Translations under genes and position numbers: made by a program
Shown: piece by piece, positions 42,113-57,458 of the stretch
Layout: each line of letters opens with the position of its first letter
How positions within the stretch are numbered: the first letter of the stretch is position 1
Notes under the pieces: generated by a model
Told to the model about the DNA's origin: nothing
The model's input: only the letters and a program-made list of their open reading frames with translations
Database searches by the model: none
From: an uncultured Bacteroidaceae bacterium
GTDB lineage: Bacteria; Bacteroidota; Bacteroidia; Bacteroidales; GCA-2748055
Reading direction: 5' to 3'
DNA length: 64,000 nt
NCBI GenBank assembly: GCA_964572225.1
Contig: CAZNFR010000006.1
Coordinates: 533 to 64,532 of the forward strand

Positions 42113-43444
42113 ATGGGCAAAAAATTTTCAGTAAGAAACATAGTATATTTTTCCGTCTGGATGTTGTTTATTTTACTTTTTACCATCTGGACAGGATTCT
42201 GGTTGTTGCTGATTGTTTCTCTCCTGCCAGCTGATTATTTTCTTTTCGGATTTATTCCCTATAAAAAAATTTCAGAAAGTCTAAAACCTCCTCATCAGCT
42301 TCAGGCACTCTTCGAATGGCTGAAAGTCATACTTTTTGCACTCCTGATTACTGTATTTATAAAGACTTTCTTTGTTGAGGCATACAAGATCCCAACCCCT
42401 TCCATGGAAAAGACTCTACTTGTGGGTGATTATCTGTTTGTTAGCAAAATTCGCTATGGGCCAAAAATCCCCAATACACCCTTGTCGGTACCCTTTATGC
42501 CGAATATGCTTCCTGGAGGAAAGGTCAGTTATTCCGATAAAATTCAGCTTCCCTATAAACGTTTGCAAGGATTAGCAAAAGTAAACAGGAATGACATTAT
42601 TGTTTTCAATTTCCCTGAGGGAGATACCGTTGTGGTTCAATACCCCGGACAGAGCTATTATTATTTGTTAAGAAGATATGGAAGAGATTACATAAGATCT
42701 CGGTACGACCTGGTTGTTCATCCGGTCGATAAAAGGGAGAATTATATTAAAAGATGTACAGGGCTACCCCGAGATACCCTTAGAATACACGCCGGTAAGG
42801 TATATATCAACGATCAGGCATTACCTGAACTGCCTACTCAGCAGTTCAAGTATTACGTCAGAACACAGAAACACAGACTGCCAGATTCCGTAATGAATCA
42901 ACTTGGAGTTGATTTGTCGGAGGTCAATTATAATCCAAAATCTTCCCTTCATGTTATGCCTCTCAGCAACGCGGACTTGACTATACTTACCGGGCTTCCT
43001 CAAATTAAAAGCATTCAGCGTTATAAAGAGCCTCTTATTTCATTCAGAAATACTGAAGTCTTTCCTCACTCTGCTGCATTTCGTTGGACAGCCGATGAGT
43101 TTGGTCCGCTGATTATCCCCGGAAAAGGCCTTGAAATAGACCTGAATATTACGAATATTTCCTTATATCGAAGGATCATTGAAGTATATGAAAAAAATAA
43201 ACTTGAAGTAATTAACAATCGAATATATATAAACGATCAACCGGTTCGTTCTTATACTTTCAAGATGGATTATTATTTCGTGTTGGGTGATAACTGGCAT
43301 AACTCTGCCGATTCCAGGTTCTGGGGGTTCGTACCTGAAAACCATCTTGTGGGTAAAGCAATAGCCATATGGTATTCGAAAGAAACAACTAAGGGATTCC
43401 TCAAAGGGATCCGATTTAACAGAATGTTCAAATCCATTAAATAA
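42113..43444 (+). CDS. lepB: Signal peptidase I (long Bacteroidota form), paralog 1
   Basis: S26 motifs: IPTPSMEKTLLVGDYLFVSK (Ser), YIKRCTGLPRD (Lys) and GDNWHNSADSRFWGFVPENHLVGKA. Confidence 0.85.
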   Translation: MGKKFSVRNIVYFSVWMLFILLFTIWTGFWLLLIVSLLPADYFLFGFIPYKKISESLKPPHQLQALFEWLKVILFALLITVFIKTFFVEAYKIPTPSMEKTLLVGDYLFVSKIRYGPKIPNTPLSVPFMPNMLPGGKVSYSDKIQLPYKRLQGLAKVNRNDIIVFNFPEGDTVVVQYPGQSYYYLLRRYGRDYIRSRYDLVVHPVDKRENYIKRCTGLPRDTLRIHAGKVYINDQALPELPTQQFKYYVRTQKHRLPDSVMNQLGVDLSEVNYNPKSSLHVMPLSNADLTILTGLPQIKSIQRYKEPLISFRNTEVFPHSAAFRWTADEFGPLIIPGKGLEIDLNITNISLYRRIIEVYEKNKLEVINNRIYINDQPVRSYTFKMDYYFVLGDNWHNSADSRFWGFVPENHLVGKAIAIWYSKETTKGFLKGIRFNRMFKSIK

Positions 43445-43450
43445 CAAATC

Positions 43451-44839
43451 ATGTTTACCATTTTAAAGAACAAATATTTTCGATTTGGTCTTGTCACCAC
43501 ACTTTACATCCTGTTCATCATCTGGCTCAGGAATTACTGGTTCCTCCTTGGAATTCCCGTTATTTATGACATGTATGTAAGCAAGAAAGTAAACTGGACT
43601 TTCTGGAAAAAGCGCACCGGAAAAAATTCTGCTCTGGTAGAGTGGCTTGATGCGCTCATCTTTGCTGTTATTGCTGTAACATTGATCAATATCTATCTTT
43701 TCCAAAACTATAAGATCCCTACTCCTTCCATGGAATCAACCATGCTTGTAGGGGATCATCTTTATGTTTCAAAAGTGGCTTATGGTCCGCGTGCCCCGAT
43801 AACTCCACTGGCCTTTCCTTTTGCACAAAACAGGATCAGAAATACGGAAGCATACCTTAAATGGATTCAACTGGATTATAAAAGGTTAAAAGGATTTGGC
43901 AAAGTAAAAAGAAACGATATTGTAGTTTTTAATTTTCCTGCTGGTGATACAGTGGCTGTCGAAAACAGTGCAGTGAGTTTTTATTCCATCGTAAGGGGAA
44001 ATGCCATGGAGCAAAGAAACAAAGATATCAGTGAAGGAAGAGAGGTTAAAAGTATGGAAGCCTACATCAAAGAAGCTAATGAAAGGGTGCGCATGGCTGC
44101 TACTATTGTGGAAAGACCTGTTGATCGCAGAGATAACTATATTAAACGCTGTGTTGCAATACCCGGCGACAGTCTTGAAATAATCCATGGTAAAGTGTTT
44201 ATAAACGGGCAACCTCAGCCCGATTTTGCAGGAATTCAATATGATTACCTCATTCAAACCAATGGTACTCCATTGAATCCCAGAGCACTAGAGGAATACG
44301 ACATCCCCCCTTCCTTTCTGGGAATCCAGAATAACCCAAGATACATTATTCCGTTGACCAGGGAAAAGGCTCAGCAACTTGAACAAGATATCCCTGATAT
44401 TATAAAAGTGGAAAAAAGGGAAAGGCAAGGCTATAATTATCTTCTATTCCCTCACAACAGCCTGTATGCATGGAACGAAGATAATTTTGGCCCGATATGG
44501 ATTCCTAAAAAAGGAGAAACCGTTGATCTGACCCTGGATAACCTTCCATTCTATCAACGAATTATTGAAGCCTATGAGAACAATACTCTTCGAACGGAAA
44601 ATGGCAAAATTTACATTAATGGTATGGAAACTGAACAGTATACCTTTTCGATGGACTATTACTGGATGATGGGTGATAACCGTCATAGCTCCTCGGACTC
44701 CCGGTATTGGGGATATGTACCTGAAAACCATATTATCGGAAAGCCAAAATTTATCTGGCTCTCACTAAATGAAAATAAAAAGTTCCTGGGTAAAATAAGG
44801 TTTAACCGTTTGTTCAAGGTTGTGGATGCCTCTGAATAA
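43451..44839 (+). CDS. lepB: Signal peptidase I (long Bacteroidota form), paralog 2
   Basis: S26 motifs: IPTPSMESTMLVGDHLYVSK, YIKRCVAIPGD and GDNRHSSSDSRYWGYVPENHIIGKP. It begins 7 nt after paralog 1. Confidence 0.85.
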   Translation: MFTILKNKYFRFGLVTTLYILFIIWLRNYWFLLGIPVIYDMYVSKKVNWTFWKKRTGKNSALVEWLDALIFAVIAVTLINIYLFQNYKIPTPSMESTMLVGDHLYVSKVAYGPRAPITPLAFPFAQNRIRNTEAYLKWIQLDYKRLKGFGKVKRNDIVVFNFPAGDTVAVENSAVSFYSIVRGNAMEQRNKDISEGREVKSMEAYIKEANERVRMAATIVERPVDRRDNYIKRCVAIPGDSLEIIHGKVFINGQPQPDFAGIQYDYLIQTNGTPLNPRALEEYDIPPSFLGIQNNPRYIIPLTREKAQQLEQDIPDIIKVEKRERQGYNYLLFPHNSLYAWNEDNFGPIWIPKKGETVDLTLDNLPFYQRIIEAYENNTLRTENGKIYINGMETEQYTFSMDYYWMMGDNRHSSSDSRYWGYVPENHIIGKPKFIWLSLNENKKFLGKIRFNRLFKVVDASE

Positions 44840-46467: not shown

Positions 46468-47379
46468 TCATACCTTGATCCTCTTAATATTCAATGAATC
46501 GAGATTGGTAGTTCCCACACCGGCTTTTTCAGCTAACTCGATATAATCTACCTCAGCAGGGTCTTTCCCAAATAATTTGCATGCGGCAAAATCGAGTGCT
46601 ACCATATCCTTACCAATCAGCTGAGCCTGCATTTTTACCACATCATCTTCACTCACTCCCCTGGGGCCATTTCTTTTCATAACCCTGTAAGCATCCACAA
46701 TGGTAAGATCCGGATTTCGCCATGTTGCAAAATCAGCAATACATTGATGCAGGTCGTTTCGGTGCCAGAACCTCCGGTCCCATACAGCCCCCATTAGGTT
46801 TTTCATGGCAATGGTCATATTTGCACCTCCATGGTTTTTAAGTACCGGAACATTAATAAATACATCCGATTCCAGAATGAGCTCATGCACACTGGCGGAA
46901 GTGAGTACCTTCCCTTTTGAGACAGATACTTCCTGGTAATACTTTTCAGTGTTTCCCATTACCATCTTACCCCCTGCATCCTTAACAGCCGCCTCAATTG
47001 CGGAATTTTTATAACACATAGACCATTCATTACAGGTATGATCAAAAACATACACATCCTTCGCTCCGGCGCTCAAACAGTGCTGGACAATCCGTTTGAC
47101 AAGTTCCGGGTTGGTATTTGCAGCACGTTCAGGACTTGCATCCCATCCAATATTGGGTTTGATCACCACCGTCTGGCCTTTTTTTACGACTCTTCCTATT
47201 CCTCCGTACTCTTCTATCGCTCTGTCGAACATTGAGTCGGCTACTCCCCCGCGGATGGCAACCATGTCCACCTCCCCTGCATTTGCAGAAGCACTGAGTC
47301 TGCCAGGTTTTAAAGTAAACGCAGTTCCTGCAACAAATCCGACGGTTATTCCTCGTTTCAAAAAGTCTCTTCTTTTCAT
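46468..47379 (-). CDS. Tat-exported DUF362-domain protein
   Basis: Twin-arginine signal MKRRDFLKRG...ASA. The body resembles the DUF362 family (VVIKPNIGW, VPVLKNHGGANMT). Lies directly upstream of the polyferredoxin gene on the same strand. Confidence 0.7.
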   Translation of the reverse strand: MKRRDFLKRGITVGFVAGTAFTLKPGRLSASANAGEVDMVAIRGGVADSMFDRAIEEYGGIGRVVKKGQTVVIKPNIGWDASPERAANTNPELVKRIVQHCLSAGAKDVYVFDHTCNEWSMCYKNSAIEAAVKDAGGKMVMGNTEKYYQEVSVSKGKVLTSASVHELILESDVFINVPVLKNHGGANMTIAMKNLMGAVWDRRFWHRNDLHQCIADFATWRNPDLTIVDAYRVMKRNGPRGVSEDDVVKMQAQLIGKDMVALDFAACKLFGKDPAEVDYIELAEKAGVGTTNLDSLNIKRIKV

Positions 47380-47760
47380 GGCTGTAAGCTGTTAAAATTT
47401 AAATTTTGGATTGAAAGAAATATTACTCCTTGGGAGCGATTTTCATTCCCTGCAAAAAATCAATCAATTCCAACTATTATAAGCATTTCTGACTGCCGCC
47501 TCTCTACCACAAATCTAAAGTATTTATAAAATGTTCATGAAGATTTCCAGGGTAATATCCACCTAAAAGACTAATATTTAACTGGTCTTAATAAAGGCGA
47601 TGATCCTTTCTTTTTAGGGGTAACTGGAAGATAAGATCCTACTGATTTTTTAGAACAACATAGGTATTCCAAGGTTTTTACCTGGGTAAATATCCAATAT
47701 TTATAATGGCTTCAAAGTTTAATTCTTCACAATCCGAGAAGGGAGTTTATCTTTGTACCC

Positions 47761-48414
47761 ATGGAAATTGAAGAAAAAACCATAGTCCTGTTTACCAGTT
47801 ATTTTGGTCCAGTGCAATACTTCATCCGTTTTATCGATAACAAAGAGATCATTCTTGATTTCCATGATAACTACCAAAAACAAACTTACAGAAACCGATG
47901 CAGAATACTGGGCGCCAATGGAATACAAAACCTTGTCGTGCCGGTTAAAAAAATGGCCACACTAAAAACAAAGACCCGGGATATCCGGATTGACTACGAT
48001 ACTGACTGGCAGAAAAACCACCTTCGGTCAATTCAGTCAGCCTATCGCTCATCTCCTTTTTTTGATTATTATTTTGACGATTATGAGGAATTCTTTTACA
48101 AGAAATACCAGTTTCTGGTGGATCTGAACACCGACATTCTGCAAGTAAACCTCAAACATTGTAACATTCGGGCCGAACCCATAAAGAGCGAAAGTTTTAT
48201 TCCAATCAGTCTAAACGATGGTCGAAGCTGTATTCATCCTAAGATAGAACCTGACAGGGACCCGTACTTTCAATCGATTAGTTATCCTCAGGTTTTTACT
48301 GAACGTTACGGATTTCTCCCAAACCTAAGTATTCTGGACCTTATTTTCAATCTGGGGCCTGAAAGTCAGGATTATCTACGGAAAAGCAAAGAGCCAGCCG
48401 GTTCAGACTTTTAA
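47761..48414 (+). CDS. WbqC-like family protein
   Basis: 217 aa. The N-terminal FTSYFGPVQYF...YQKQTYRNRCRILGANGIQNLVVPV matches my recollection of the WbqC-like family. Function unknown. Confidence 0.65.
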   Translation: MEIEEKTIVLFTSYFGPVQYFIRFIDNKEIILDFHDNYQKQTYRNRCRILGANGIQNLVVPVKKMATLKTKTRDIRIDYDTDWQKNHLRSIQSAYRSSPFFDYYFDDYEEFFYKKYQFLVDLNTDILQVNLKHCNIRAEPIKSESFIPISLNDGRSCIHPKIEPDRDPYFQSISYPQVFTERYGFLPNLSILDLIFNLGPESQDYLRKSKEPAGSDF

Positions 48415-48449
48415 AAAACCCGCTTTGCAGAAACAAAGCGGGAGTTTTT
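48413..48449. terminator. Bidirectional rho-independent terminator between convergent genes
   Basis: A-run, then stem CCCGCTTTG (48419-48427) / CAAAGCGGG (48434-48442) with a 6-nt loop, then AGTTTTT. Confidence 0.65.
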
Positions 48450-48455
48450 CGTACA

Positions 48456-49916
48456 TTAGAATCGCAATCCTACGGTCATTTGCACACTATTCATATTAGA
48501 GCTTAGTTTAGCAGGATCGGAAACCGGAGGAATGTAAAGATAATAGCTCTGCTCATCAATACTATGGGAATAGGAAACATCGAAAAATACATTGCTTGAA
48601 CGGATTCCGAGTCCACCGGAAATAATTCTACGATTCGAATTTACATTAGGTTCTTCTGTTACAAAGGGACTGCCATAAAATGCATATCCTCCCCTGAGGT
48701 AGGCAGGTCCAAGTCTTACTTCCCCTCCAACCCGGAAATTATGGGCTACATCGTACAACTCCTCAATGGTAGAATTTTCATCAAAGAAATTATAATCCGA
48801 GGCATCAAGATCAGCAGTTGAATAATCCATGAATTCATAATCAAAACTGATAAGACCTACAGTGCCAAGGGTAATAACTGCATTTCCCACCACCTTCAAT
48901 GGAGTTCTGAGTCTGTAATCATACCGGTTCAGCCCTGAGGATGCATTATAAATACCGCCCAGATCCTCTTCAGGATCCACCCTTCCTTCCATGTAAGTAT
49001 CAAATTCATCATTTAGATTGTAAAAAGTTGGAGTATGAAAAGCTGCTCCAATCCTCAGAAAATCCAAAGGCCTTGCAATGGCCCCGATCTTAAGATTATA
49101 GCCGGTACCCCTGGTACTCAAATACTCCTCGAAAGTAAATCCGTCGGTAAAAATTATGATGTCATTGGGATCATCCTCATTGGTAATTATGGTCTGATCA
49201 AATCTTACTCTTTGGACCCCTATGGTAGCGCCCATGTACAAACGATGGTTATAATTTGCCCCGAATGAAAAGGTGTATTCACCCATAAACCCTCGGGTAC
49301 GGATCTCCCTGGACTGATCCTGCCCATACCCGTCAAGGTTAAAATCATTGAAGTACTCACCCGTATCTTCATATCTGTCAATCATATACGTATCCCATGC
49401 GAGTCCCTCGTAAAAATTGTTTAAGGAGGATGGGTCCTGGTTTCCCGCGAAGGATACGAAATTATCCAACAGAGAAGAATTATTGTTAATTCCCGACATA
49501 AAAATATTCTGATTGAAATTATTCAGCCGGTTATATCCTATACCAAAATTGGTGCTGATCCAGCCGGACTCATTTCCAAGGGAATTATAAAAGACCATTC
49601 CCAGATTACCCAGGTTGAAATTAAAATTATCGTCGGATATGGTATTTCCGAGATAGTCGGCAGAGGTATTATCCCAATAAAATGCCGTTGAAATGGAGAA
49701 TTCAGAGCTACGGTACAATCCGATACTTGCCGGATTTATACTCAATCCGGTAAAATCACCTCCGATAGCGCCGATAGCGCCTCCCAATGCTACGGACCGG
49801 GAGGTTCCGGTAATAAAATTTTGTGAATATCGCAAAGCATCAATTTCACTTTGAGCCCTTAGCAAGGAAGGAAATAGAAAGAAGATGCCGGTTACAATAA
49901 AAATATAGCGTTTCAT
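48456..49916 (-). CDS. Outer-membrane beta-barrel protein, FadL/TodX-like
   Basis: Signal peptide ending LLRAQS. N-terminal ALRYSQ...GTSRSVALGGAIGAIGGDFTGLSINPASIG resembles the FadL-family hatch region. Alternating beta pattern and C-terminal ...MTVGLRF (terminal Phe). Confidence 0.55.
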   Translation of the reverse strand: MKRYIFIVTGIFFLFPSLLRAQSEIDALRYSQNFITGTSRSVALGGAIGAIGGDFTGLSINPASIGLYRSSEFSISTAFYWDNTSADYLGNTISDDNFNFNLGNLGMVFYNSLGNESGWISTNFGIGYNRLNNFNQNIFMSGINNNSSLLDNFVSFAGNQDPSSLNNFYEGLAWDTYMIDRYEDTGEYFNDFNLDGYGQDQSREIRTRGFMGEYTFSFGANYNHRLYMGATIGVQRVRFDQTIITNEDDPNDIIIFTDGFTFEEYLSTRGTGYNLKIGAIARPLDFLRIGAAFHTPTFYNLNDEFDTYMEGRVDPEEDLGGIYNASSGLNRYDYRLRTPLKVVGNAVITLGTVGLISFDYEFMDYSTADLDASDYNFFDENSTIEELYDVAHNFRVGGEVRLGPAYLRGGYAFYGSPFVTEEPNVNSNRRIISGGLGIRSSNVFFDVSYSHSIDEQSYYLYIPPVSDPAKLSSNMNSVQMTVGLRF

Positions 49917-49982
49917 TGTTCTGATTTTTTGAATGTTAATGGAAAAAAGGTCCCGGAAACGGGACCTTTTGTTACTTGTTTA

Positions 49983-51587
49983 TTATCTTCTGCCTCCACC
50001 CCTGCTACTGCTCGATGAGGACCTCGAAGAGGTACCGGAACTACTTCTCGATGAACTGCTTCCGGATGAAGACCTGGAGTAGCTGCTGGAACTTCTGCTG
50101 CTGGAAGAAGATCCGCTGTAACTACTGGAACTTCTGCTGCTGGAAGAAGGCCTGCTGTAGCTGCTGGAACTTCTGCTGCTGGAAGAAGGCCTGCTGTAGG
50201 TGCTGGAACTTCTGCTGCTGGAAGAAGGCCTGCTGTAGGTGCTGGAGCTTCTGTTGCTGGAAGAAGGTCTATTATAAGAACTGCTTGAACTGCTTTGTGA
50301 AGGCCTTGTATAGGTCGAGCTGTTCCTGGTTGAAGGACTGGTATAGCTACCTGAACGACTGGAAGAAGAAGGTCTGCTGTAGGTCCTGCTCTGAGTGCCG
50401 GCAGAACTACTTCTGTTATATGTCGGTGATGTTGAAGTACGTGGCCTGGAGTAACTGGGCGTATAAGTCCTGCTTTCCCTGCTTGTATTTGTCCTCACTG
50501 CTTCACGGTTTACAGATCTGGTGTCAGATGCTGTTCTGGTTGTTGGACGTTGACCGGTACTGGTCACGGTTCGGGTCTCAGGTCGCACCGCTGTTCTTCC
50601 TTCAGTGGTCCTGGTACTTGTAGTTGTTCTGTTTACAGTCCTGGAAGCCTCAGTTCCACTCCTTCTTACTGAATTAATATCATCTCTTCCGCTGACTCTT
50701 CGATCGGTGGTGGATTTTCGTACCGCTGATGTTCCTGCATAACTGGAAGTTACAGGTCTGTAGGCGGCTCTGGAGGTTCTGTGTCCATAAGATGCATACC
50801 TTACAGGGTAATAACCTCCACCCCAATAACCATCGTAGTAGCCATGGCGATAGCCTGCCCAGTAAGATCCATAATAGTGTCCGCCCCAATAGGGCCTGTA
50901 TCCCCAACCCCAATCATAATATCCATAATAAGGACGGTGCCAGGAGTAATAAGGAGAGTACCAGGGATCATAATAACCCCATGAGCCCCATCCCCAGTTA
51001 AATCCCATGTAGAGACTTACACCCCAGTGGACAGGATTGTAGGTATACCAATAATAATCAGCATAAAAAGGATCATAATAGTCCCAACCATAATAGGGCC
51101 TGTGAAACCTTCGTATTCTTGATGAATATTGATAATCGTATATGTAGGAATCATCAAGGTAATAATTATTGATTACTACCCGGTCCTTCTCTTCATCATA
51201 ATAACTATCCTGATAGCTATAATCATTATAGACTGTATCAGGGTAGGGCTGTTCCTCTGCATAAACGTGATCTTCAGAAGTGTAGGTTTCCCCAAGCATT
51301 TCAGCTTCCTTCTGGAGCTTATATTTCTCATAATCACTCAGCTGTTCATATTGGGGATCTTGTCTCTCCGGTAAAGCGGCAGTTTCTTTTACGATTTCGG
51401 GACTCAGTTGTTGGGTGGTTACCGGTTCCTGAGTCGCAGGAACCTGCTCTGTTACAGAAGGTTTCTCGGTCACTGCGGAAGGGACGAAGTAAGCATCGTC
51501 AGTAACTGCTGTGCCTGAGTAGTACCCGCTGGAACAAGAAGCGAGGAGAAATGTCGCACTTAATAGTATTGTTAATCTTGTTTTCAT
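49983..51587 (-). CDS. Low-complexity lipoprotein: acidic linker, Tyr/Trp/Gly-rich core and a Ser/Thr/Arg-rich repeat tail
   Basis: The ORF track starts at 51635; I prefer ATG 51587 (MKTRLTILLSATFLLASC, signal plus lipobox). The core reads RPYYGWDYYDPFYADYYWY...GFNWGWGSWGYYDPWYSPYYSWHRPYYGYYDWGWGYRPYWGG. The tail has about five YSRPSSSSRSSSS repeats and ends SSSSSSRGGGRR. Confidence 0.65.
   Translation of the reverse strand: MKTRLTILLSATFLLASCSSGYYSGTAVTDDAYFVPSAVTEKPSVTEQVPATQEPVTTQQLSPEIVKETAALPERQDPQYEQLSDYEKYKLQKEAEMLGETYTSEDHVYAEEQPYPDTVYNDYSYQDSYYDEEKDRVVINNYYLDDSYIYDYQYSSRIRRFHRPYYGWDYYDPFYADYYWYTYNPVHWGVSLYMGFNWGWGSWGYYDPWYSPYYSWHRPYYGYYDWGWGYRPYWGGHYYGSYWAGYRHGYYDGYWGGGYYPVRYASYGHRTSRAAYRPVTSSYAGTSAVRKSTTDRRVSGRDDINSVRRSGTEASRTVNRTTTSTRTTEGRTAVRPETRTVTSTGQRPTTRTASDTRSVNREAVRTNTSRESRTYTPSYSRPRTSTSPTYNRSSSAGTQSRTYSRPSSSSRSGSYTSPSTRNSSTYTRPSQSSSSSSYNRPSSSNRSSSTYSRPSSSSRSSSTYSRPSSSSRSSSSYSRPSSSSRSSSSYSGSSSSSRSSSSYSRSSSGSSSSRSSSGTSSRSSSSSSRGGGRR
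50082..50276. repeat. Five head-to-tail 39-bp tandem repeats, in frame within the lipoprotein gene
   Basis: The units are 50082-50120, 50121-50159, 50160-50198, 50199-50237 and 50238-50276. Units 2-4 differ only within their first 4 nt, and unit 5 is more diverged. Each encodes YSRPSSSSRSSS[ST] on the minus strand. Degenerate copies continue to about 50400. Confidence 0.9.
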
Positions 51588-51957
51588 GATGTATCCTCCT
51601 GCCTTAATATCTGATAAATTAATTTTTTTTAACATTCTGTTTAATGAAAAACAAATACTATACCAAAATGATTTGCCTTCTGCTTTTTAACAATAACCGG
51701 TCTCTCGCGGATCAATTTACATTTTTATTACGGAAAACCGAATGTTTGGGTTGATTTTAACGTGAAATTCCGGGAACGGAGATCCTCCTGAACAGTTTAG
51801 GATGGCAGATTTCTGCTCTAATCCCATTTATATTTCGAGAATAGGATTTTATTTTTTTAATTTGCGGTTCCTTTATGCCGTGCAATAGATCCGGCCTGAA
51901 ATAGTCCTGGAAAGGGCATAAAGATTGTTAAACCGAATATTACATATCCCAAAAAAT

Positions 51958-53433
51958 ATGGCCAAAGTTCTTACTCCTGCTGAAGAGAATTATTCTCAAT
52001 GGTACAATGATATTGTGATTAAAGCTGATCTGGCGGAATACTCTGCTGTTCGTGGCTGTATGGTAATAAAGCCCTATGGGTATGCCATTTGGGAAAAAAT
52101 GCAGGCGGTACTTGATAAAATGTTTAAGGATACAGGTCATCAGAACGCCTATTTTCCTCTTTTTATCCCAAAGTCTTTTTTTAGCAAAGAGGCCAACCAT
52201 GTGGAGGGATTTGCTAAGGAATGTGCGGTAGTTACGCATTATCGTCTTAAAAACGATGAAGAGAAAGGAGGGGTTAAAGTAGATCCCGACGCCAGACTGG
52301 AAGAAGAATTGATTATCCGGCCCACTTCCGAAACCATCATCTGGAATACCTACAAAAACTGGATACAATCCTACAGGGACCTGCCTATTCTGGTTAACCA
52401 ATGGGCCAATGTTGTTCGCTGGGAAATGAGAACCCGACTCTTTCTAAGAACTGCAGAGTTCCTATGGCAGGAAGGACATACCGCCCATGCCACAGAAAAA
52501 GAAGCGGTAGAGGAAACGCTCAGAATGTTAAATGTCTATTCAACATTTGCCAGGGAATGGATGGGAGTACCTGTAATTGAAGGTAAAAAATCGGAAAGTG
52601 AAAAATTTGCGGGGGCCATAGACACCTATTGCATTGAAGCTCTTATGCAGGATGGGAAAGCGTTACAGGCTGGAACTTCTCACTTCCTGGGACAAAATTT
52701 TGCAAAAGCATTCGATGTGCAATTTACCAATCAGGAAGGGAAACTGGAATACGTTTGGGCTACATCCTGGGGAGTTTCCACCCGACTAATGGGTGCCCTC
52801 ATAATGGCCCATTCAGATAATAACGGTCTGGTGTTGCCCCCTAAGCTTGCACCTATTCAGGTGGTTATTGTGCCTATCTATAAAAGTGAAGAGCAGCTTA
52901 ACCTAATTTCCGAAAAAGCCAATTTCATTAAAAATGCACTAACAGAGGCCGGAATTTCGGTAAAATATGACGACAGGGATACTCATAAACCCGGATGGAA
53001 ATTTGCCGAATATGAACTCAAAGGAGTCCCGGTGAGACTTGCCCTGGGGCCCAGGGACCTTGAAAACGGCACCGTGGAAGTGGCCCGAAGGGATAAGCTT
53101 GAAAAAGTATCCCTTTCATCGGATAATATCGCAGAGTATTGTAAAGATCTACTGGATGATATTCAAAATAACATCTATTCTAAAGCCTTACATTTCCGTG
53201 AGAATATGACCTTCTCAGTGGATACACAAGAAGAATTCATAAAGGTAATCGAAGAAAAAGGGGGATTCATAAAAACCTGGTGGGATGGAACTCCTGAAAC
53301 CGAAGAAAAAGTGAAGGAAATGACCAAAGCAACAATTCGCTGTATACCCTTTGGTGAAAGTAAGGAGACGGGAATCGACCCTTTCAGCCAAAAAGAAGGT
53401 AAATTTCAGGTTCTCTATGCAAGAGCATATTGA
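51958..53433 (+). CDS. proS: Proline--tRNA ligase (archaeal/eukaryotic-like type)
   Basis: The ORF track starts at 51925; I prefer ATG 51958 ([20 protein letters not shown]). Class II motifs ([35 protein letters not shown]) are present, and the sequence ends in the conserved C-terminal Tyr (YARAY). Confidence 0.9.
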
Positions 53434-53597
53434 TCAATCCTTTACTGAACTCATCCACTTTGAACCCTCCTCCGGTAATGGTTCAAACAACATATCGTTT
53501 AACTTTTATCTTTACATGAAAAAGGTTAATTTCATCCCACTTTGCATTTTCCGTTCGGAATACCTGACTAAATGGTAGTAACTTAAAATAACCAACC

Positions 53598-55517
53598 ATG
53601 AAAAAAATAATTATCTTCTGTTTTTCTTTCGTAATTCTTCTGCTAGCTTCCTGTAAGGATGATTACCCAACCCTTTACAATGAATATAGCGGTACAATTC
53701 CTTCCGTTATCGATTCTGGTCCCGATGGGGAGACCATGAATAAATCCTCCCATAATGTTGTGGTTAGAATTGAGCCCTCACATCTCACTGTAAACAATGA
53801 AAGATATGATTATGAAATTATAGACGATAATGAAACATCTTTAATTATGGAGGCCACAAAAGTGGAGGATAAAAGTCAATTGCGTTTACGCTTCAATAAA
53901 GCTGATGAGAAACTGATCATGGAAACAGGAGAAACGGGATTAGAAATTGAGTTGTACTCAGAAACAAAATGGTTCGAAAAAAAATTAAGTGAATTTGCGA
54001 TCGTACCCCTCACTGCAAATATCGATCACCTTAGTGAAAATCAAAAGGAAATGTTGAAGATACTTTTTGAAGTAGCCGATATAATGGATGAAATATTCTG
54101 GATGCAATCGTGGGGAAATAAAGATGAACTTATGTCGACAACCGACAATGAAACCCTTCAGAAACTTTATGAAATTAATTATGGCCCGTGGGAAAGATTG
54201 AATAATAATGCCCCACTGGTAGATCGGTTTCCACCCAAAAGCCCGGGCGCCAATTTCTATCCCAAGGATATGACCATTACCGAATTCAAAAATATAGATA
54301 ACCCTGATAAAAACAGCCTTTATACCCTTCTCCGCAGAAATAGCGAAGGACAATTATACACTCAGTGGTATCATAATGCCTATGAAGCACAAGTGAATAA
54401 AGCCTCAAACCTACTAATCAAAGCGTCTGAACTATCCGAAGATGAAGGTTTCAGGAAGTATCTTAAACTGAGAGCTAAAGCCCTGCTTACCGATAACTAT
54501 TACGAAAGTGATGTGGCCTGGATGACCATGAAGGATAACCTGATCGATTTTGTTGTCGGACCAATTGAAAATTATGAAGACCAACTACTAAACTACAAAG
54601 CTGCCCATGAATCATTTATTCTGATTAAGGATCTTGAATGGAGCGAAAGAATCTCTTCCCTGGCCGCCTTGTTACCCGAATTGCAGAAAGACCTGCCTGT
54701 TGAACCCAGGTTTAAAACCGAAGTCCCAGGTGGAGATTCCGATCTGAATGTATACGAAGTAGTATATTATGCTGGAGATTGTAATGCGGGGAGTAAAACC
54801 ATTGCGATTAACCTTCCCAACGATCCTGAAGTCAGAGCGAATTATGGTAGCAGGAAATTACAGCTTAAGAATTCCATTCGATACAAGTTTGAGAAAATAC
54901 TGATCCCTATTTCCAATGTACTCATCGCAGAAGACCAAAGAAAGTACATCGATTTTAATGCCTTTTTCGAAAATACCATGTTTCACGAAGTCGCCCATGG
55001 ACTGGGACTGGATTACACTATCAACGGAAAAGGGAGTGTAAGAGAGGCGCTAAGAGAAGCCTATTCACCCATAGAAGAGGGGAAAGCAGATATTCTTGGA
55101 TTATATATTGTGACAAAACTGGCTGAAATGGGAGAATTGGGCGAAAAAGACCTGATGACCAATTATGTTACCTTTATGGCCAGCATATTCAGATCTGTCC
55201 GGTTTGGGGCATCTTCAGCTCATGGAAAAGCCAATATGATGCGTTTCTATTATTTCAGTGAAAAAGAAGCTTTTACCAGGGATGCTGAATCAGGGCAATA
55301 TCAGGTCAATTTTGAGAAAATGAAAATTGCTATGGAAGATCTGACAAAGGAAATTATTTCAATCCAGGGCCTGGGTGATTATGAAAGGGCGCAAACCTTT
55401 ATAAGCGAAAAGGGATACATCCGGAAGCAACTCCAATCTGATCTGTATCGCCTGAACAAATTATCCATTCCGGTCGACTTAAGATTTGAACAGGGTCCGG
55501 AAATGCTGGGATTATAA
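53598..55517 (+). CDS. M49 (DPP III)-like zinc metallopeptidase lipoprotein, pentapeptide HExxH variant
   Basis: Lipobox LLLASC. Zinc motif FHEVAHGLG, followed 30 residues later by IEEGKADILG, which matches the second M49 motif EExK/RAD/E as in the HExxH-type bacterial DPP III relatives. Confidence 0.55.
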   Translation: MKKIIIFCFSFVILLLASCKDDYPTLYNEYSGTIPSVIDSGPDGETMNKSSHNVVVRIEPSHLTVNNERYDYEIIDDNETSLIMEATKVEDKSQLRLRFNKADEKLIMETGETGLEIELYSETKWFEKKLSEFAIVPLTANIDHLSENQKEMLKILFEVADIMDEIFWMQSWGNKDELMSTTDNETLQKLYEINYGPWERLNNNAPLVDRFPPKSPGANFYPKDMTITEFKNIDNPDKNSLYTLLRRNSEGQLYTQWYHNAYEAQVNKASNLLIKASELSEDEGFRKYLKLRAKALLTDNYYESDVAWMTMKDNLIDFVVGPIENYEDQLLNYKAAHESFILIKDLEWSERISSLAALLPELQKDLPVEPRFKTEVPGGDSDLNVYEVVYYAGDCNAGSKTIAINLPNDPEVRANYGSRKLQLKNSIRYKFEKILIPISNVLIAEDQRKYIDFNAFFENTMFHEVAHGLGLDYTINGKGSVREALREAYSPIEEGKADILGLYIVTKLAEMGELGEKDLMTNYVTFMASIFRSVRFGASSAHGKANMMRFYYFSEKEAFTRDAESGQYQVNFEKMKIAMEDLTKEIISIQGLGDYERAQTFISEKGYIRKQLQSDLYRLNKLSIPVDLRFEQGPEMLGL

Positions 55518-55586: not shown

Positions 55587-57458
55587 ATGCAGCGATTTTT
55601 CTATTCAGTATTTTTGTGGATATTCTTTCTATTCACGCTCACAAGTGCCTTTGCAGGTTCAATTAACGGTTTTAATCGCTCCAGCCAGGTACCGGATACC
55701 ATTCCGGTTTCCAGATATGATCATTTTTATGACTCCCTCAGAAGTAAAGCCCACAACCGACGATGGACGAAGGAACTGTATAATGTTATTATTCTGCCTC
55801 CAAAAGACGAAAACGACACAGTTAAAACAATTCCTTTTAACCAAAATTATGAAGAATTCGCAGGTCTGACCATCCGGAAAATTACTTTTGTTAAACTCTA
55901 CCCTTTCGGTACTGATATTAACGATACCAGTATATATCGGCCAAGCAGGTTAAACAACTTTGCAAATACCATTCATATAAAAACAAGAGATCCTGTTCTG
56001 GAAAGACACCTTCTGTTTCATGAACGGGAGAAAATAGATCCGCTTACTCTGGCCGATAATGAAAGAATCCTGAGGGAACTGCCTTATATTGAGGATGTCC
56101 GAATACTGGTATTACCAGACTCTACGAATAATCAGTATGCAGAAGTTGTGATCATCACTCAGGACCGATGGTCCAAAGCCTTTTTTCTTGATCTTAAAAA
56201 ACTGGATGCCGGTAAACTTGAAATCTGGGATAGAAGTATTTTTGGCAGCGGACATGAAGTTCAGGCTAACCTGCATTGGGACAGGCAGAGGAGTAAATTC
56301 TTCGGATATGAGGCATTTTGGGTCAATAAAAACATTCTCGGGACATTTTTAAACTCAAGGGTATATTATACCAATGTTTTTGACACCCATTCCTATGGCT
56401 TAAGTCTTGACCGTCCTTTTTTCACTCCTGACGTAAAATATGCGGGAGGTATAAATATGTTCAACACCAATACCATAGATAGGATCTGGTTTGCGGATAC
56501 CCTTAGAAAAGAAGAGAGTATTCATTTCAAAACCCTTGATGCATGGCTGGCGAGAAGTTTCTCATTAAATCCAAAGGATGATTTCACGGAAAAAAGAAAG
56601 AATATTACGATTGCAAGCAGGGTTTTCAGAAACGTTTTCCTGGAGAGACCTCCGGAAGTGGAATTGAAAGTTTTTCCGGAATATCATACCCGGACCCTCT
56701 GGCTAAATTCACTGTCCTATTCTGCACAAGACTTCTATCGAAGCAGGTTGATTTATAGCTACGGACAAACAGAAGATATTCCCATTGGCTTTCTTGCAGA
56801 TCTCAAAGTCGGCCTGGAGCTTAACGAATTTGAAAACCGATACTACAGCTCCATTTCGCTCGCACATGGAAATATATTTCTGAAATTTGGATACCTGGGA
56901 GGAATAATTTCCCTTGGATCCTATATTACTTCGCAAAAAGAACTTCAACAAGGGGTCCTCCAGTTAAATTTAAGCCATTTCAGTAATTTGTATATAATCA
57001 GGCAATTAAAATACAGATATTTTGCAGACTTCCGATATACGCGGGGTATAAACCGTTTTGGAACAGAACGACTGCGGGTTTCGGATAAAGAGGGTGTGAG
57101 AGGCTTGAATCTTGATTACCTGAATGCCCAACAACGCATAACCTTAAAACTGGAAGGGGTATTATTCGCCCCCAGGAAGCATTTTGGCTTCCAGTTTGCT
57201 TATTTCGGATTTATGGATTTTGCTCTCCTGGGCACCGATAAGGTTGCACTTAAAGATATGGACGCTTTTTCTGGAATTGGTGCAGGATTAAGAATTAGAA
57301 ATGAACGATTGGTTTTCCCAACCATTCAGTTTCGGTTTGCCTTTTACCCTAATATGGATGGGTTAAATTTCTCTGACTATTTCCAATTTTCGGGTGAAAA
57401 GAAATTGAGTCCGCCAGACTACAGACCTGGAAAACCGGTTATAATTCCATTTCAATGA
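55587..57458 (+). CDS. Omp85/BamA-superfamily-like outer-membrane protein with a POTRA-like domain
   Basis: Signal peptide (FTLTSAFA). A POTRA-like segment (IRKITFVKL...IKTRDPVLERHLLFHEREKIDPLTLADNERILRELPYIEDVRILVLP...AEVVIITQDRW), then a long beta-rich region ending ...PVIIPFQ. Confidence 0.5.
   Translation: MQRFFYSVFLWIFFLFTLTSAFAGSINGFNRSSQVPDTIPVSRYDHFYDSLRSKAHNRRWTKELYNVIILPPKDENDTVKTIPFNQNYEEFAGLTIRKITFVKLYPFGTDINDTSIYRPSRLNNFANTIHIKTRDPVLERHLLFHEREKIDPLTLADNERILRELPYIEDVRILVLPDSTNNQYAEVVIITQDRWSKAFFLDLKKLDAGKLEIWDRSIFGSGHEVQANLHWDRQRSKFFGYEAFWVNKNILGTFLNSRVYYTNVFDTHSYGLSLDRPFFTPDVKYAGGINMFNTNTIDRIWFADTLRKEESIHFKTLDAWLARSFSLNPKDDFTEKRKNITIASRVFRNVFLERPPEVELKVFPEYHTRTLWLNSLSYSAQDFYRSRLIYSYGQTEDIPIGFLADLKVGLELNEFENRYYSSISLAHGNIFLKFGYLGGIISLGSYITSQKELQQGVLQLNLSHFSNLYIIRQLKYRYFADFRYTRGINRFGTERLRVSDKEGVRGLNLDYLNAQQRITLKLEGVLFAPRKHFGFQFAYFGFMDFALLGTDKVALKDMDAFSGIGAGLRIRNERLVFPTIQFRFAFYPNMDGLNFSDYFQFSGEKKLSPPDYRPGKPVIIPFQ

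Follow-up and report, generated by a model that had tools for sequence, protein, structure and literature searches.

A predicted disordered lipoprotein and its strictly paired FadL-family barrel gene: what looks like an undescribed envelope module of Bacteroidota

What would a bacterium do with a lipoprotein that is predicted hardly to fold at all? The question is raised by a stretch of 64,000 nucleotides (hereafter the window) from an uncultured Bacteroidaceae bacterium (contig CAZNFR010000006.1), on the minus strand of which an initial annotation had placed a lipoprotein precursor consisting of an acidic linker, a Tyr/Trp/Gly-rich core and a Ser/Arg-rich repeat tail. The gene proves to be one of a large family and to be strictly paired with the gene for an outer-membrane barrel of the FadL family, and the pair looks like an undescribed envelope module. 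A tentative reading, which we favour without holding it to be probable, is that the lipoprotein is an outer-membrane-anchored disordered partner, most likely a cargo or tethered client, of the adjacent barrel, forming a barrel-docked or barrel-installed "sticky" layer that would bind anionic envelope polymers; the physical contact, the membrane side, the stickiness and the ligand are the parts of this reading that we infer. The three genes around which the argument turns are as follows.

49983..51587, minus strand: gene for the predicted disordered lipoprotein (534-aa precursor, counted from M17)
48456..49916, minus strand: gene for a FadL-family 14-strand outer-membrane barrel of 486 aa, with a signal peptide, a hatch (residues 22-71) and a C-terminal Phe
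51925..53433, plus strand: proS (prolyl-tRNA synthetase; Pfam tRNA-synt_2b, HGTP_anticodon and ProRS-C_1 in homologous loci)

Comparison of neighbourhoods was based on 79 loci retained from a genome scan. In 74 of them the lipoprotein gene is followed directly, and on the same strand, by a barrel homologue, the contigs of the remaining five ending too early, and proS is found divergently upstream in 75. Clustering of the open reading frames (ORFs) of these loci revealed only three generally conserved genes, namely the lipoprotein (77), proS (75) and the barrel (73), with the next-commonest families, a Zn-ribbon protein and NIF3, reaching about 30 loci; neither a recurrent kinase, glycosyltransferase, protease, modifying enzyme or inner-membrane partner nor any conserved fatty-acid, aromatic-catabolism or hydrocarbon pathway genes emerged from the same loci. 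Look-ups starting from the barrel found the lipoprotein upstream in both cases tried, with proS also present, and three look-ups starting from lipoprotein homologues likewise found the barrel and proS. The pairing of lipoprotein and barrel genes is strict, for which reason a physical or functional partnership is the most economical explanation, while proS is a conserved neighbour for which no functional link is implied. The survey of homologues and their surroundings that the initial annotation had recommended led to a large family seated next to a FadL-family barrel and proS; the conserved short motifs, the very large family and the invariable barrel pairing near proS are all features beyond those originally described. 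Between the two paired genes stands one further element.

49945..49970, minus strand: intrinsic-terminator-like hairpin, AAAAGGTCCCG-TTTC-CGGGACCTTTTTT followed by a T-run

The lipoprotein stop codon lies 13 nt before the start of this hairpin and the barrel ATG 28 nt after its end, and a perfect-stem hairpin with a T-tail recurs at the equivalent place in 27 of 70 related loci, against none of 70 shuffled controls. Its recurrence suggests that the lipoprotein is produced in excess over the barrel, the latter being expressed by read-through. An Rfam scan of positions 47000-54000 returned sub-threshold matches only, on the terminator hairpin (rimP leader and Termite-leu RNA at 49914-49989), best explained as hairpin noise, and a sigma-70 promoter scan performed no better than on shuffles, Bacteroidota promoters lying outside the model of that scan.

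The lipoprotein itself is laid out in blocks of sharply different composition, together with a few short conserved elements.

51534..51587, minus strand: signal peptide with lipobox, MKTRLTILLSATFLL-ASC, the predicted lipidated Cys being precursor residue 18
51486..51500, minus strand: DDAYF, an instance of the family motif DDxY[YF], in which D30 is near-invariant and Y33 invariant in the family alignment
51297-51335, minus strand: predicted helix DYEKYKLQKEAEM (AlphaFold2, residues 85-97, confidence score about 89), within the acidic block
51111..51533, minus strand: acidic Tyr/Glu/Asp-rich block, isoelectric point about 4
50994..51179, minus strand: conserved core motif VVINNYY…DYQYSSRIRRFHRPYYGWDYYDPFYADYYWYTYNPVHWGVSLYMGFNW, from column frequencies in 277 non-redundant family segments
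50766..51110, minus strand: Tyr/Trp/Gly-rich block, including semi-conserved SYWAGYRHGYYDGYW and YGHR motifs (consensus)
49986..50765, minus strand: basic Ser/Thr/Arg tail, isoelectric point about 11.9, with the C-terminus GGGRR
50056..50267, minus strand: 39-bp (13-aa) tandem repeat in 5.4 copies, encoding SSSSRSSS(S/T)YSRP (Tandem Repeats Finder)

The minus-strand ORF 49983..51635 (550 aa) is present in the ORF list of the window, and the lipobox, the acidic linker, the Tyr/Trp/Gly block and the Ser/Thr/Arg tail are all borne out by its translation. Of the span originally proposed, the open frame stands and the start probably does not: the true start is probably M17 at 51587 rather than M1 at 51635, because homologues align from MKT and an AGGAGG lies 7 nt upstream of the ATG at 51587, so that the M1-M17 extension, open frame though it is, probably goes untranslated. 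In the 550-aa numbering the signal peptide and lipobox MKTRLTILLSATFLLASC come first, the N-terminus from M17 reading MKTR-LTILLSATFLL-ASC (basic n-region, hydrophobic h-region, lipobox). With [LVI][ASTVI][GAS]C at the end of the signal peptide as the lipobox pattern, the window protein reads as a signal peptidase II lipoprotein precursor, as had been supposed, and the lipobox recurs in 61 of 75 family members. The acidic block (residues 35-175) contains Y 14, E 11, S 9 and D 9%, with D+E 29 against K+R 10, and is followed by the Tyr/Trp/Gly block (residues 176-290: Y 28, G 17, W 11, R 7, P 7, S 6, H 5 and D 5%) and a tail of 260 residues, of which the first part (residues 291-400) is T 24, R 20 and S 15% and the second (residues 401-550) S 57 and R 14%, the protein ending SSSSSSRGGGRR. 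Seven copies of (S/T)Y(S/T/N)RP punctuate the tail, and the 39-bp repeat, with 90% matches and no indels, is its recently expanded portion. Among the 31 window ORFs of at least 250 aa the lipoprotein ORF is an extreme compositional outlier, with a Y+W+G fraction of 0.21 and an S+R fraction of 0.33 against 0.15 for the next ORF. Overlapping the gene is a 215-aa Cys/Trp/Lys-rich ORF at 49976..50623 on the plus strand, an antisense reading of the Ser/Arg repeat.

How widely such a protein occurs was addressed from several directions. A word-indexed search with residues 17-314 returned 125 relatives, all "hypothetical" and none with a Pfam domain, the named sources among them being metagenome-assembled genomes (MAGs) of Bacteroidales/Bacteroidota, and a 50-sequence profile run against 1.84 billion cluster representatives matched 5285 of them at E<=1e-3, 2609 at E<=1e-10 and 758 at E<=1e-30. 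Of the best 150 profile matches, many cover nearly the whole profile in one stretch and others match it in two or three. The genome scan (one genome per species) was seeded from an 11-sequence alignment, in which the core motif was the only stretch conserved enough to serve, and with the strict pattern Y[SA]SRIRRFH it identified 384 genomes encoding a confirmed relative; the 79 loci drawn from it come from Bacteroidales, Rikenellaceae, Lentimicrobiaceae, Flavobacteriales (Vicingus), Sphingobacteriia and Chitinophaga. Marine Flavobacteriales abound in a shorter, Asn/Lys-rich form of ~300 aa, and a further homology search with variants of this type added 648 relatives. No cultured carrier was found in the genome scan, the cluster names or the short-variant search, the last of which turned up no named organism either, the cluster names themselves reading "hypothetical protein" only, apart from one label from the IMG database discussed below. 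Pfam (E<=1) and NCBIfam scans of the window protein gave no match, no Pfam model was matched at E<=0.1 by any of 50 aligned family members, the PDB, searched by sequence and by profile, yielded low-complexity noise only (spidroin, mL77, CWF21 protein), and full-text searches found no literature on the family. The family is real and large, and has neither a name nor a Pfam or NCBIfam model; by these searches the lipoprotein has no detectable relative of known function, in agreement with the earlier view that it could be assigned to no characterised family. The same Pfam scans lend nothing to the relationship once suggested with YxWGxW-type repeat proteins, the likeness to the Pfam WXXGXW/YXWGXW repeats being limited to local strings such as GWGWGSWG.

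Several individual records of the family call for comment. The IMG label "uncharacterized membrane protein YgcG", carried by some members (cluster of P0062: P0244 and P0245, JGI/IMG), was judged a low-complexity annotation artefact because no TPM/YgcG-type domain was detected in the family. A fragment with the NNYY…RIRRFH…YWYD core occurs in a eukaryote transcriptome assembly (P0022; EukProt, Trinity transcript), its source being presumably a bacterial contaminant or associate, and hints at transcription of a homologue. At one locus (L001, 6001-8131) the lipoprotein gene is split into a 398-aa product and a frame-shifted Arg/Pro/Ala-rich ORF, with the barrel gene split too; these splits are more suggestive of faulty assembly or sequencing in the repeat-rich tail than of pseudogenes, since the related contig L085 has an intact 541-aa version. 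A 2.6 kb contig of a "Nitriliruptoria bacterium" MAG (PUKE01000096.1) carries a Bacteroidales-type lipoprotein gene and the start of a barrel gene, and is probably mis-binned rather than an actinobacterial copy, because its sediment MAG series (names …Sed10_NN) is shared with many of the listed Bacteroidales MAGs.

It might be asked at this point whether the ORF is functional at all, given its extreme low complexity, the overlapping antisense ORF and the recently expanded repeat, all of which would suit a gene in decay or an ORF that arose by chance across a DNA repeat. The reading frame, however, is kept in relatives whose DNA is unalignable (26-48% protein identity), and across orders it is retained along with the succession of blocks, the short motifs, the signal at the N-terminus and the basic C-terminus, whereas the antisense ORF has no such comparative support. 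In AT-rich members from Flavobacteriales, Ser and Arg are largely swapped for Asn and Lys, and the Y-x-K-P motif and the basic end survive the replacement. Selection therefore acts on the protein and not on the DNA repeat, since the layout and fixed short elements are conserved, and the objection foreseen in the initial annotation, that only the DNA repeat might be conserved, fails. The comparative data refute a non-functional ORF for practical purposes, and we regard it as hardly credible.

Which parts of the protein are constrained, and in what form, can be gathered from the family alignment and from modelling. AlphaFold2, supplied with the 50-sequence alignment, gave a mean predicted local distance difference test score (pLDDT) of 45 and a predicted template modelling score of 0.24, with 437 of the 534 residues below 50, the signal peptide and the one 13-residue helix being the only confident parts; in keeping with what the composition had led one to expect, the lipoprotein is, by this prediction, almost wholly disordered. 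The three-block layout is conserved across 74 family sequences, the composition medians being D+E 0.20 and K+R 0.04 for the N-terminal block, Y+W+F+G 0.53 for the core block, and S+T 0.31, K+R 0.16 and aliphatic plus aromatic 0.06 for the tail, whose aliphatic content is about 4-6%. This points to protein-level selection on what, as proposed at the outset, would be a low-complexity protein of the cell envelope. The motif DDxY[YF] is present in 75 of 75 sequences, at a distance of 9-13 residues (median 11) from the lipidated Cys, and this fixed spacing looks like a geometric constraint relative to the membrane anchor. Of the 14 members without a recognisable lipobox, at least six, of Flavobacteriales or "Bacteroidetes bacterium" type, have a signal-peptidase-I type end (…AQ|DDFYP), which places DDxY[YF] at the mature N-terminus. 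The core follows with a consensus of ~60-70 residues, NNYY…DYxYSSRIRRFHxPY…YYDPxYTNxYWYxYDPxxWGxSIYxGY, in which many positions are 75-96% conserved (in the 277 segments N141 87%, Y143 88%, Y154 91%, Y171 96%, P185 95%, G189 80% and S191 81%). Together, DDxYY and the aromatic core may be regarded as a candidate docking element. In the tail, Y[STN][KRQAEM]P occurs on average 2.8 times per family member against 0.11 in shuffled tails, an enrichment of about 24-fold, and 71 of 75 sequences end in a basic C-terminus such as GGRR, RRPR or KPRK.

Certain familiar fates of such a chain were considered and rejected. General O-glycosylation of the tail was discounted, the single D[ST][AILVMT] site of the window protein lying in the acidic block. 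The idea of a type IX secretion cargo was set aside as well, the protein having no C-terminal sorting domain (Por_Secre_tail or related, by Pfam) and a disordered GGGRR end. A functional amyloid of curli or Fap type was likewise dismissed, there being no Pfam match and no such genes nearby, where the barrel and proS are the only conserved neighbours. As for surface display, the Bacteroidota surface lipoprotein export signal was found in none of the 61 lipidated members; the window protein reads CSSGYYS… after the Cys, and the acidic pair of these members stands at +9 to +13 from the Cys instead of at the export-signal position.

What, then, is the partner? The barrel has more than 1160 relatives and is modelled confidently by AlphaFold2 (pLDDT 85), a 14-strand FadL topology being readable from the DSSP string of the model. 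The best Foldseek matches in the PDB were BtBamG (9hiv_F, E 3.6e-16, 14% identity) and E. coli FadL (about 1e-15), followed by PgBamG, FjBamG, TodX and TbuX, over a range of E 1e-11 to 4e-16; no PorV chain is among the 50 Foldseek matches listed. By sequence, PDB searches returned weak TbuX/FadL matches only, without BamG or PorV, and Pfam Toluene_X matched 11 of 34 barrel relatives (best 2.1e-10), the window copy falling below threshold. Judged from the model, the partner has the FadL fold and belongs to the FadL/Toluene_X group; it is a new branch of a known fold. The hatch is by far its most conserved region, with 25 of 50 positions conserved to at least 90%, and includes the NPA motif N61-P62-A63, in which N61 and P62 are invariant and A63 is at least 90% conserved. 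The DSSP string suggests that strand 3 is interrupted at residues 134-135, where a kink, as in FadL, would give a lateral opening. A 54-residue, helix-containing loop (residues 145-198) carries conserved residues and, from the DSSP string and the loop lengths, would lie on the outer face, the short turns being presumably periplasmic; the latter are the least conserved parts of the barrel.

Such features would suit a true FadL channel importing a hydrophobic or aromatic compound, to which the lipoprotein would be a SusD-like accessory that captures the substrate or loosens lipopolysaccharide (LPS) at the entrance. The FadL hallmarks (conserved hatch, NPA motif and apparent strand 3 break) are kept, the fold matches to FadL, TodX and TbuX are as good as those to BamG, the likeness extending to the Toluene_X matches and the C-terminal Phe, and the conserved residues of the 145-198 loop would be well placed for such a role if the loop is indeed on the outer face. 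Pairs of a barrel and a substrate-binding lipoprotein are, moreover, the rule in Bacteroidota (SusCD; PMC12578637). Classical FadL channels, on the other hand, are not known to have a dedicated partner protein, and no known substrate-binding lipoprotein resembles a disordered polycation of 500 residues. The surface-export signal is missing from all 61 lipidated members, the intergenic terminator argues against 1:1 stoichiometry, and no fatty-acid, aromatic-catabolism or hydrocarbon genes are conserved near the pair in the 79 loci. We consider an accessory role of this kind unlikely.

The ranking of BtBamG as the closest solved structure, with the BamG proteins of P. gingivalis and F. johnsoniae among the top matches, directs attention to the biogenesis of outer-membrane proteins, in which the pair might act as a paralogous BamG/BamH-like module, or the lipoprotein as a BamP-like regulator whose strand-like motif of alternating aromatic residues (YWYTYNP..WGVSLY) mimics beta-barrel signals. 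Housekeeping-type conservation across the phylum speaks for such a role, as does the disordered Tyr/Gly/Asn-rich loop EL3 of Bacteroidota BamA, the function of which is not known (PMC12578637); that likeness is one of composition, EL3 being, according to the same paper, a 38-residue disordered Tyr/Gly-rich outer-membrane loop inside BamA rather than a separate protein. Against it, the BamG chains of the PDB are not reached by barrel profiles even at E<=10 and the Foldseek identity to BamG chains is 11-14%, for which reasons the barrel was rejected as a BamG ortholog; BamH, a surface lipoprotein, is folded and carries an acidic export signal, whereas the window lipoprotein is predicted to be disordered and lacks that signal; and the subunits named as co-purifying with BamA in the available excerpts of the papers on the barrel-assembly machinery (PMC12611786, PMC12578637) include nothing like the pair. 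A part in outer-membrane protein biogenesis accordingly strikes us as very improbable.

BamG and BamH nevertheless supply a direct precedent, within the same phylum, for a docked lipoprotein. According to PMC12611786 and PMC12578637, BamG, a barrel of the FadL family, holds the lipoprotein BamH by its lipid-anchored N-terminal region, and BamG2 and BamH2 are encoded by adjacent genes (Bt1785 and Bt1786). The two systems have in common a FadL-family 14-strand barrel that works, or in the present pair would work, with a lipoprotein instead of or in addition to transporting small molecules, and BamG resembles the partner barrel in that the N-terminus, or hatch, is its most conserved part. The pair described here is most like such barrel-plus-lipoprotein pairs of Bacteroidota, and differs from them by its disordered partner without an export signal.

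Following that precedent, the favoured reading of a barrel-docked lipoprotein, which would be an obligate partner of its barrel, can be set out as a sequence of steps. After Sec export and lipidation, N-proximal elements, namely the lipid anchor, the DDxYY motif at 9-13 residues and the ~60-70-residue RIRRFH/YWYxYNPxxWG aromatic motif, would dock the chain onto the barrel, which would hold it at the outer membrane or help to display it there. The remainder would stay unfolded, the Tyr/Trp/Gly block and the Arg/Ser tail with its Y-x-[KR]-P repeats providing many weak Tyr-Arg and electrostatic contacts; Tyr-rich and Arg-rich blocks with repeated short motifs are the composition expected of a multivalent, self-associating polycation. 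The lipoprotein could in this manner act as a cohesive, polycationic "sticky" layer on anionic polymers, be they LPS or capsule outside or peptidoglycan inside, and the intergenic terminator hairpin would make it more abundant than the barrel. A dedicated barrel and an arrangement for excess cargo favour display or export.

A number of points weigh against this proposal and should be given their due. Facing the periplasm, and not surface display, is the default prediction in view of the missing export signal, and passage of a 500-residue chain through the barrel is unlikely because FadL lumens are narrow and hatch-plugged, the hatch being precisely what is best conserved. The retained NPA motif would fit a genuine small-molecule channel equally well, and the terminator could instead separate two transcription units that are independent of each other. 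With 50 sequences, the alignment may lack the depth that AlphaFold2 needs to fold the conserved core, which might also fold upon its partner. The sole hint of transcription is the homologue fragment in the Trinity transcriptome assembly.

The periplasmic default invites another explanation, in which the lipoprotein is a tether or spacer between the outer membrane and the cell wall: anchored in the inner leaflet, it would have an acidic spacer repelled from the membrane and a basic tail lying non-covalently on peptidoglycan, the barrel being merely a second anchoring point, and the sole one in the non-lipidated variants. The conserved order of acidic, aromatic and basic segments away from the anchor agrees with this arrangement, as do the absence of the canonical export signal from the 61 lipidated members and the placement of the hatch, the most conserved part of the barrel, within reach of the periplasm. 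Some periplasmic proteases recognise hydrophobic stretches or C-termini, and the aliphatic-poor tail with its basic C-terminus would disfavour them; Bacteroidota are not known to have Lpp, which also counts for a tether. Yet no known peptidoglycan-binding domain was matched by Pfam in the window protein or the 50 members, and covalent, Lpp-like attachment was rejected, the C-terminal residue being usually Arg and not Lys. A periplasmic lipoprotein, furthermore, needs no dedicated barrel, yet the pairing is strict, and conservation in the barrel is lowest in the presumed periplasmic turns. Such a tether is in our view less likely than not.

Beyond BamG and BamH, instructive parallels to a barrel-docked disordered lipoprotein can be drawn. 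In RcsF with OmpA/C/F and in Slam (type XI secretion), a lipoprotein with a disordered charged segment is held, or passed across, by an outer-membrane barrel, and Slam, whose barrel is 14-stranded, is encoded by genes adjoining those of its lipoprotein cargo. RcsF and the Slam cargoes have folded domains, and their barrels and lipoproteins are unrelated to the pair; no sequence or fold link to RcsF or Slam turned up in the searches made here, none of which was aimed at them. In composition, the analogues of the window lipoprotein are FUS-type low-complexity proteins, the adhesive proteins of mussels and sandcastle worms, and the Bacillus spore-coat proteins CotG and CotB, with which it shares a Tyr/Gly "sticker" plus an Arg-rich block, Tyr-punctuated poly-Ser, a CotG-like 13-residue Ser/Arg/Tyr repeat and predicted disorder. 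The eukaryotic analogy drawn in the initial annotation, a Tyr-rich sticker with an Arg-rich tail (28% Tyr and 14-20% Arg in the respective blocks), is a fair description of composition; the likeness to all of these proteins is by composition alone, with no homology, another compartment and no kinase conserved nearby.

Some further features of the surroundings may be recorded. A hairpin of 24 nt (stem 9-10 bp), flanked on either side by T-runs, at 48419-48442 between a WbqC-like gene (47761..48414, plus strand) and the end of the barrel gene (48456), looks like a shared bidirectional terminator for these convergent genes. Two tandem, unusually long signal peptidase I (Peptidase_S26) paralogues of 443 and 462 aa lie at 42113-43444 and 43451-44839 on the plus strand, and an S26 gene is also found near the equivalent neighbourhood in the related loci L001 and L085. 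On the same strand, a 639-aa protein (53598-55517) has a lipoprotein-like N-terminus (…LLLASCKDDY) and a weak match to Peptidase_M49 (dipeptidyl-peptidase III family); unlike that of the disordered lipoprotein, its Cys is immediately followed by the acidic pair expected of surface lipoproteins. Downstream of it is a 623-aa ORF without a Pfam match (55587-57458, plus strand), a similar 624-aa gene occupying the same position in L001. In another locus (L002, 11949-13353), a giant CotH kinase-domain protein is encoded ~4.6 kb downstream of the lipoprotein gene and ~3 kb beyond the barrel; in Bacillus, Ser-rich coat proteins are substrates of the kinase CotH, and this neighbour is probably a coincidence, as it is not conserved in other loci.

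Bacteroidota are dominant in gut, oral, marine and sediment settings, and their outer membrane is organised unlike the E. coli model. In 2025 two groups reported that the FadL-type barrel BamG works with lipoproteins in outer-membrane assembly (PMC12611786 and PMC12578637); the present pair would be a second FadL-barrel/lipoprotein module, spread over several orders of the phylum, and its lipoprotein, almost fully disordered by prediction and of eukaryote-like Tyr/Arg composition, would be of a type not described in bacterial envelopes. Should the partnership be true, it would raise the questions of how a disordered polycation survives in the envelope, what it binds, and whether FadL-type barrels serve the phylum generally as a protein-docking platform. 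A bolder and more doubtful proposal is that the Bacteroidota envelope is built in part from a disordered "sticker" protein of Tyr/Arg type, which would form a polycationic layer resembling a gel or condensate and would be installed or exported by a specialised FadL barrel. If that were so, the pair would stand further from anything known, and would represent a new kind of bacterial envelope material and extend the handling of proteins by FadL-type barrels to a new role, beyond those of BamG and PorV.

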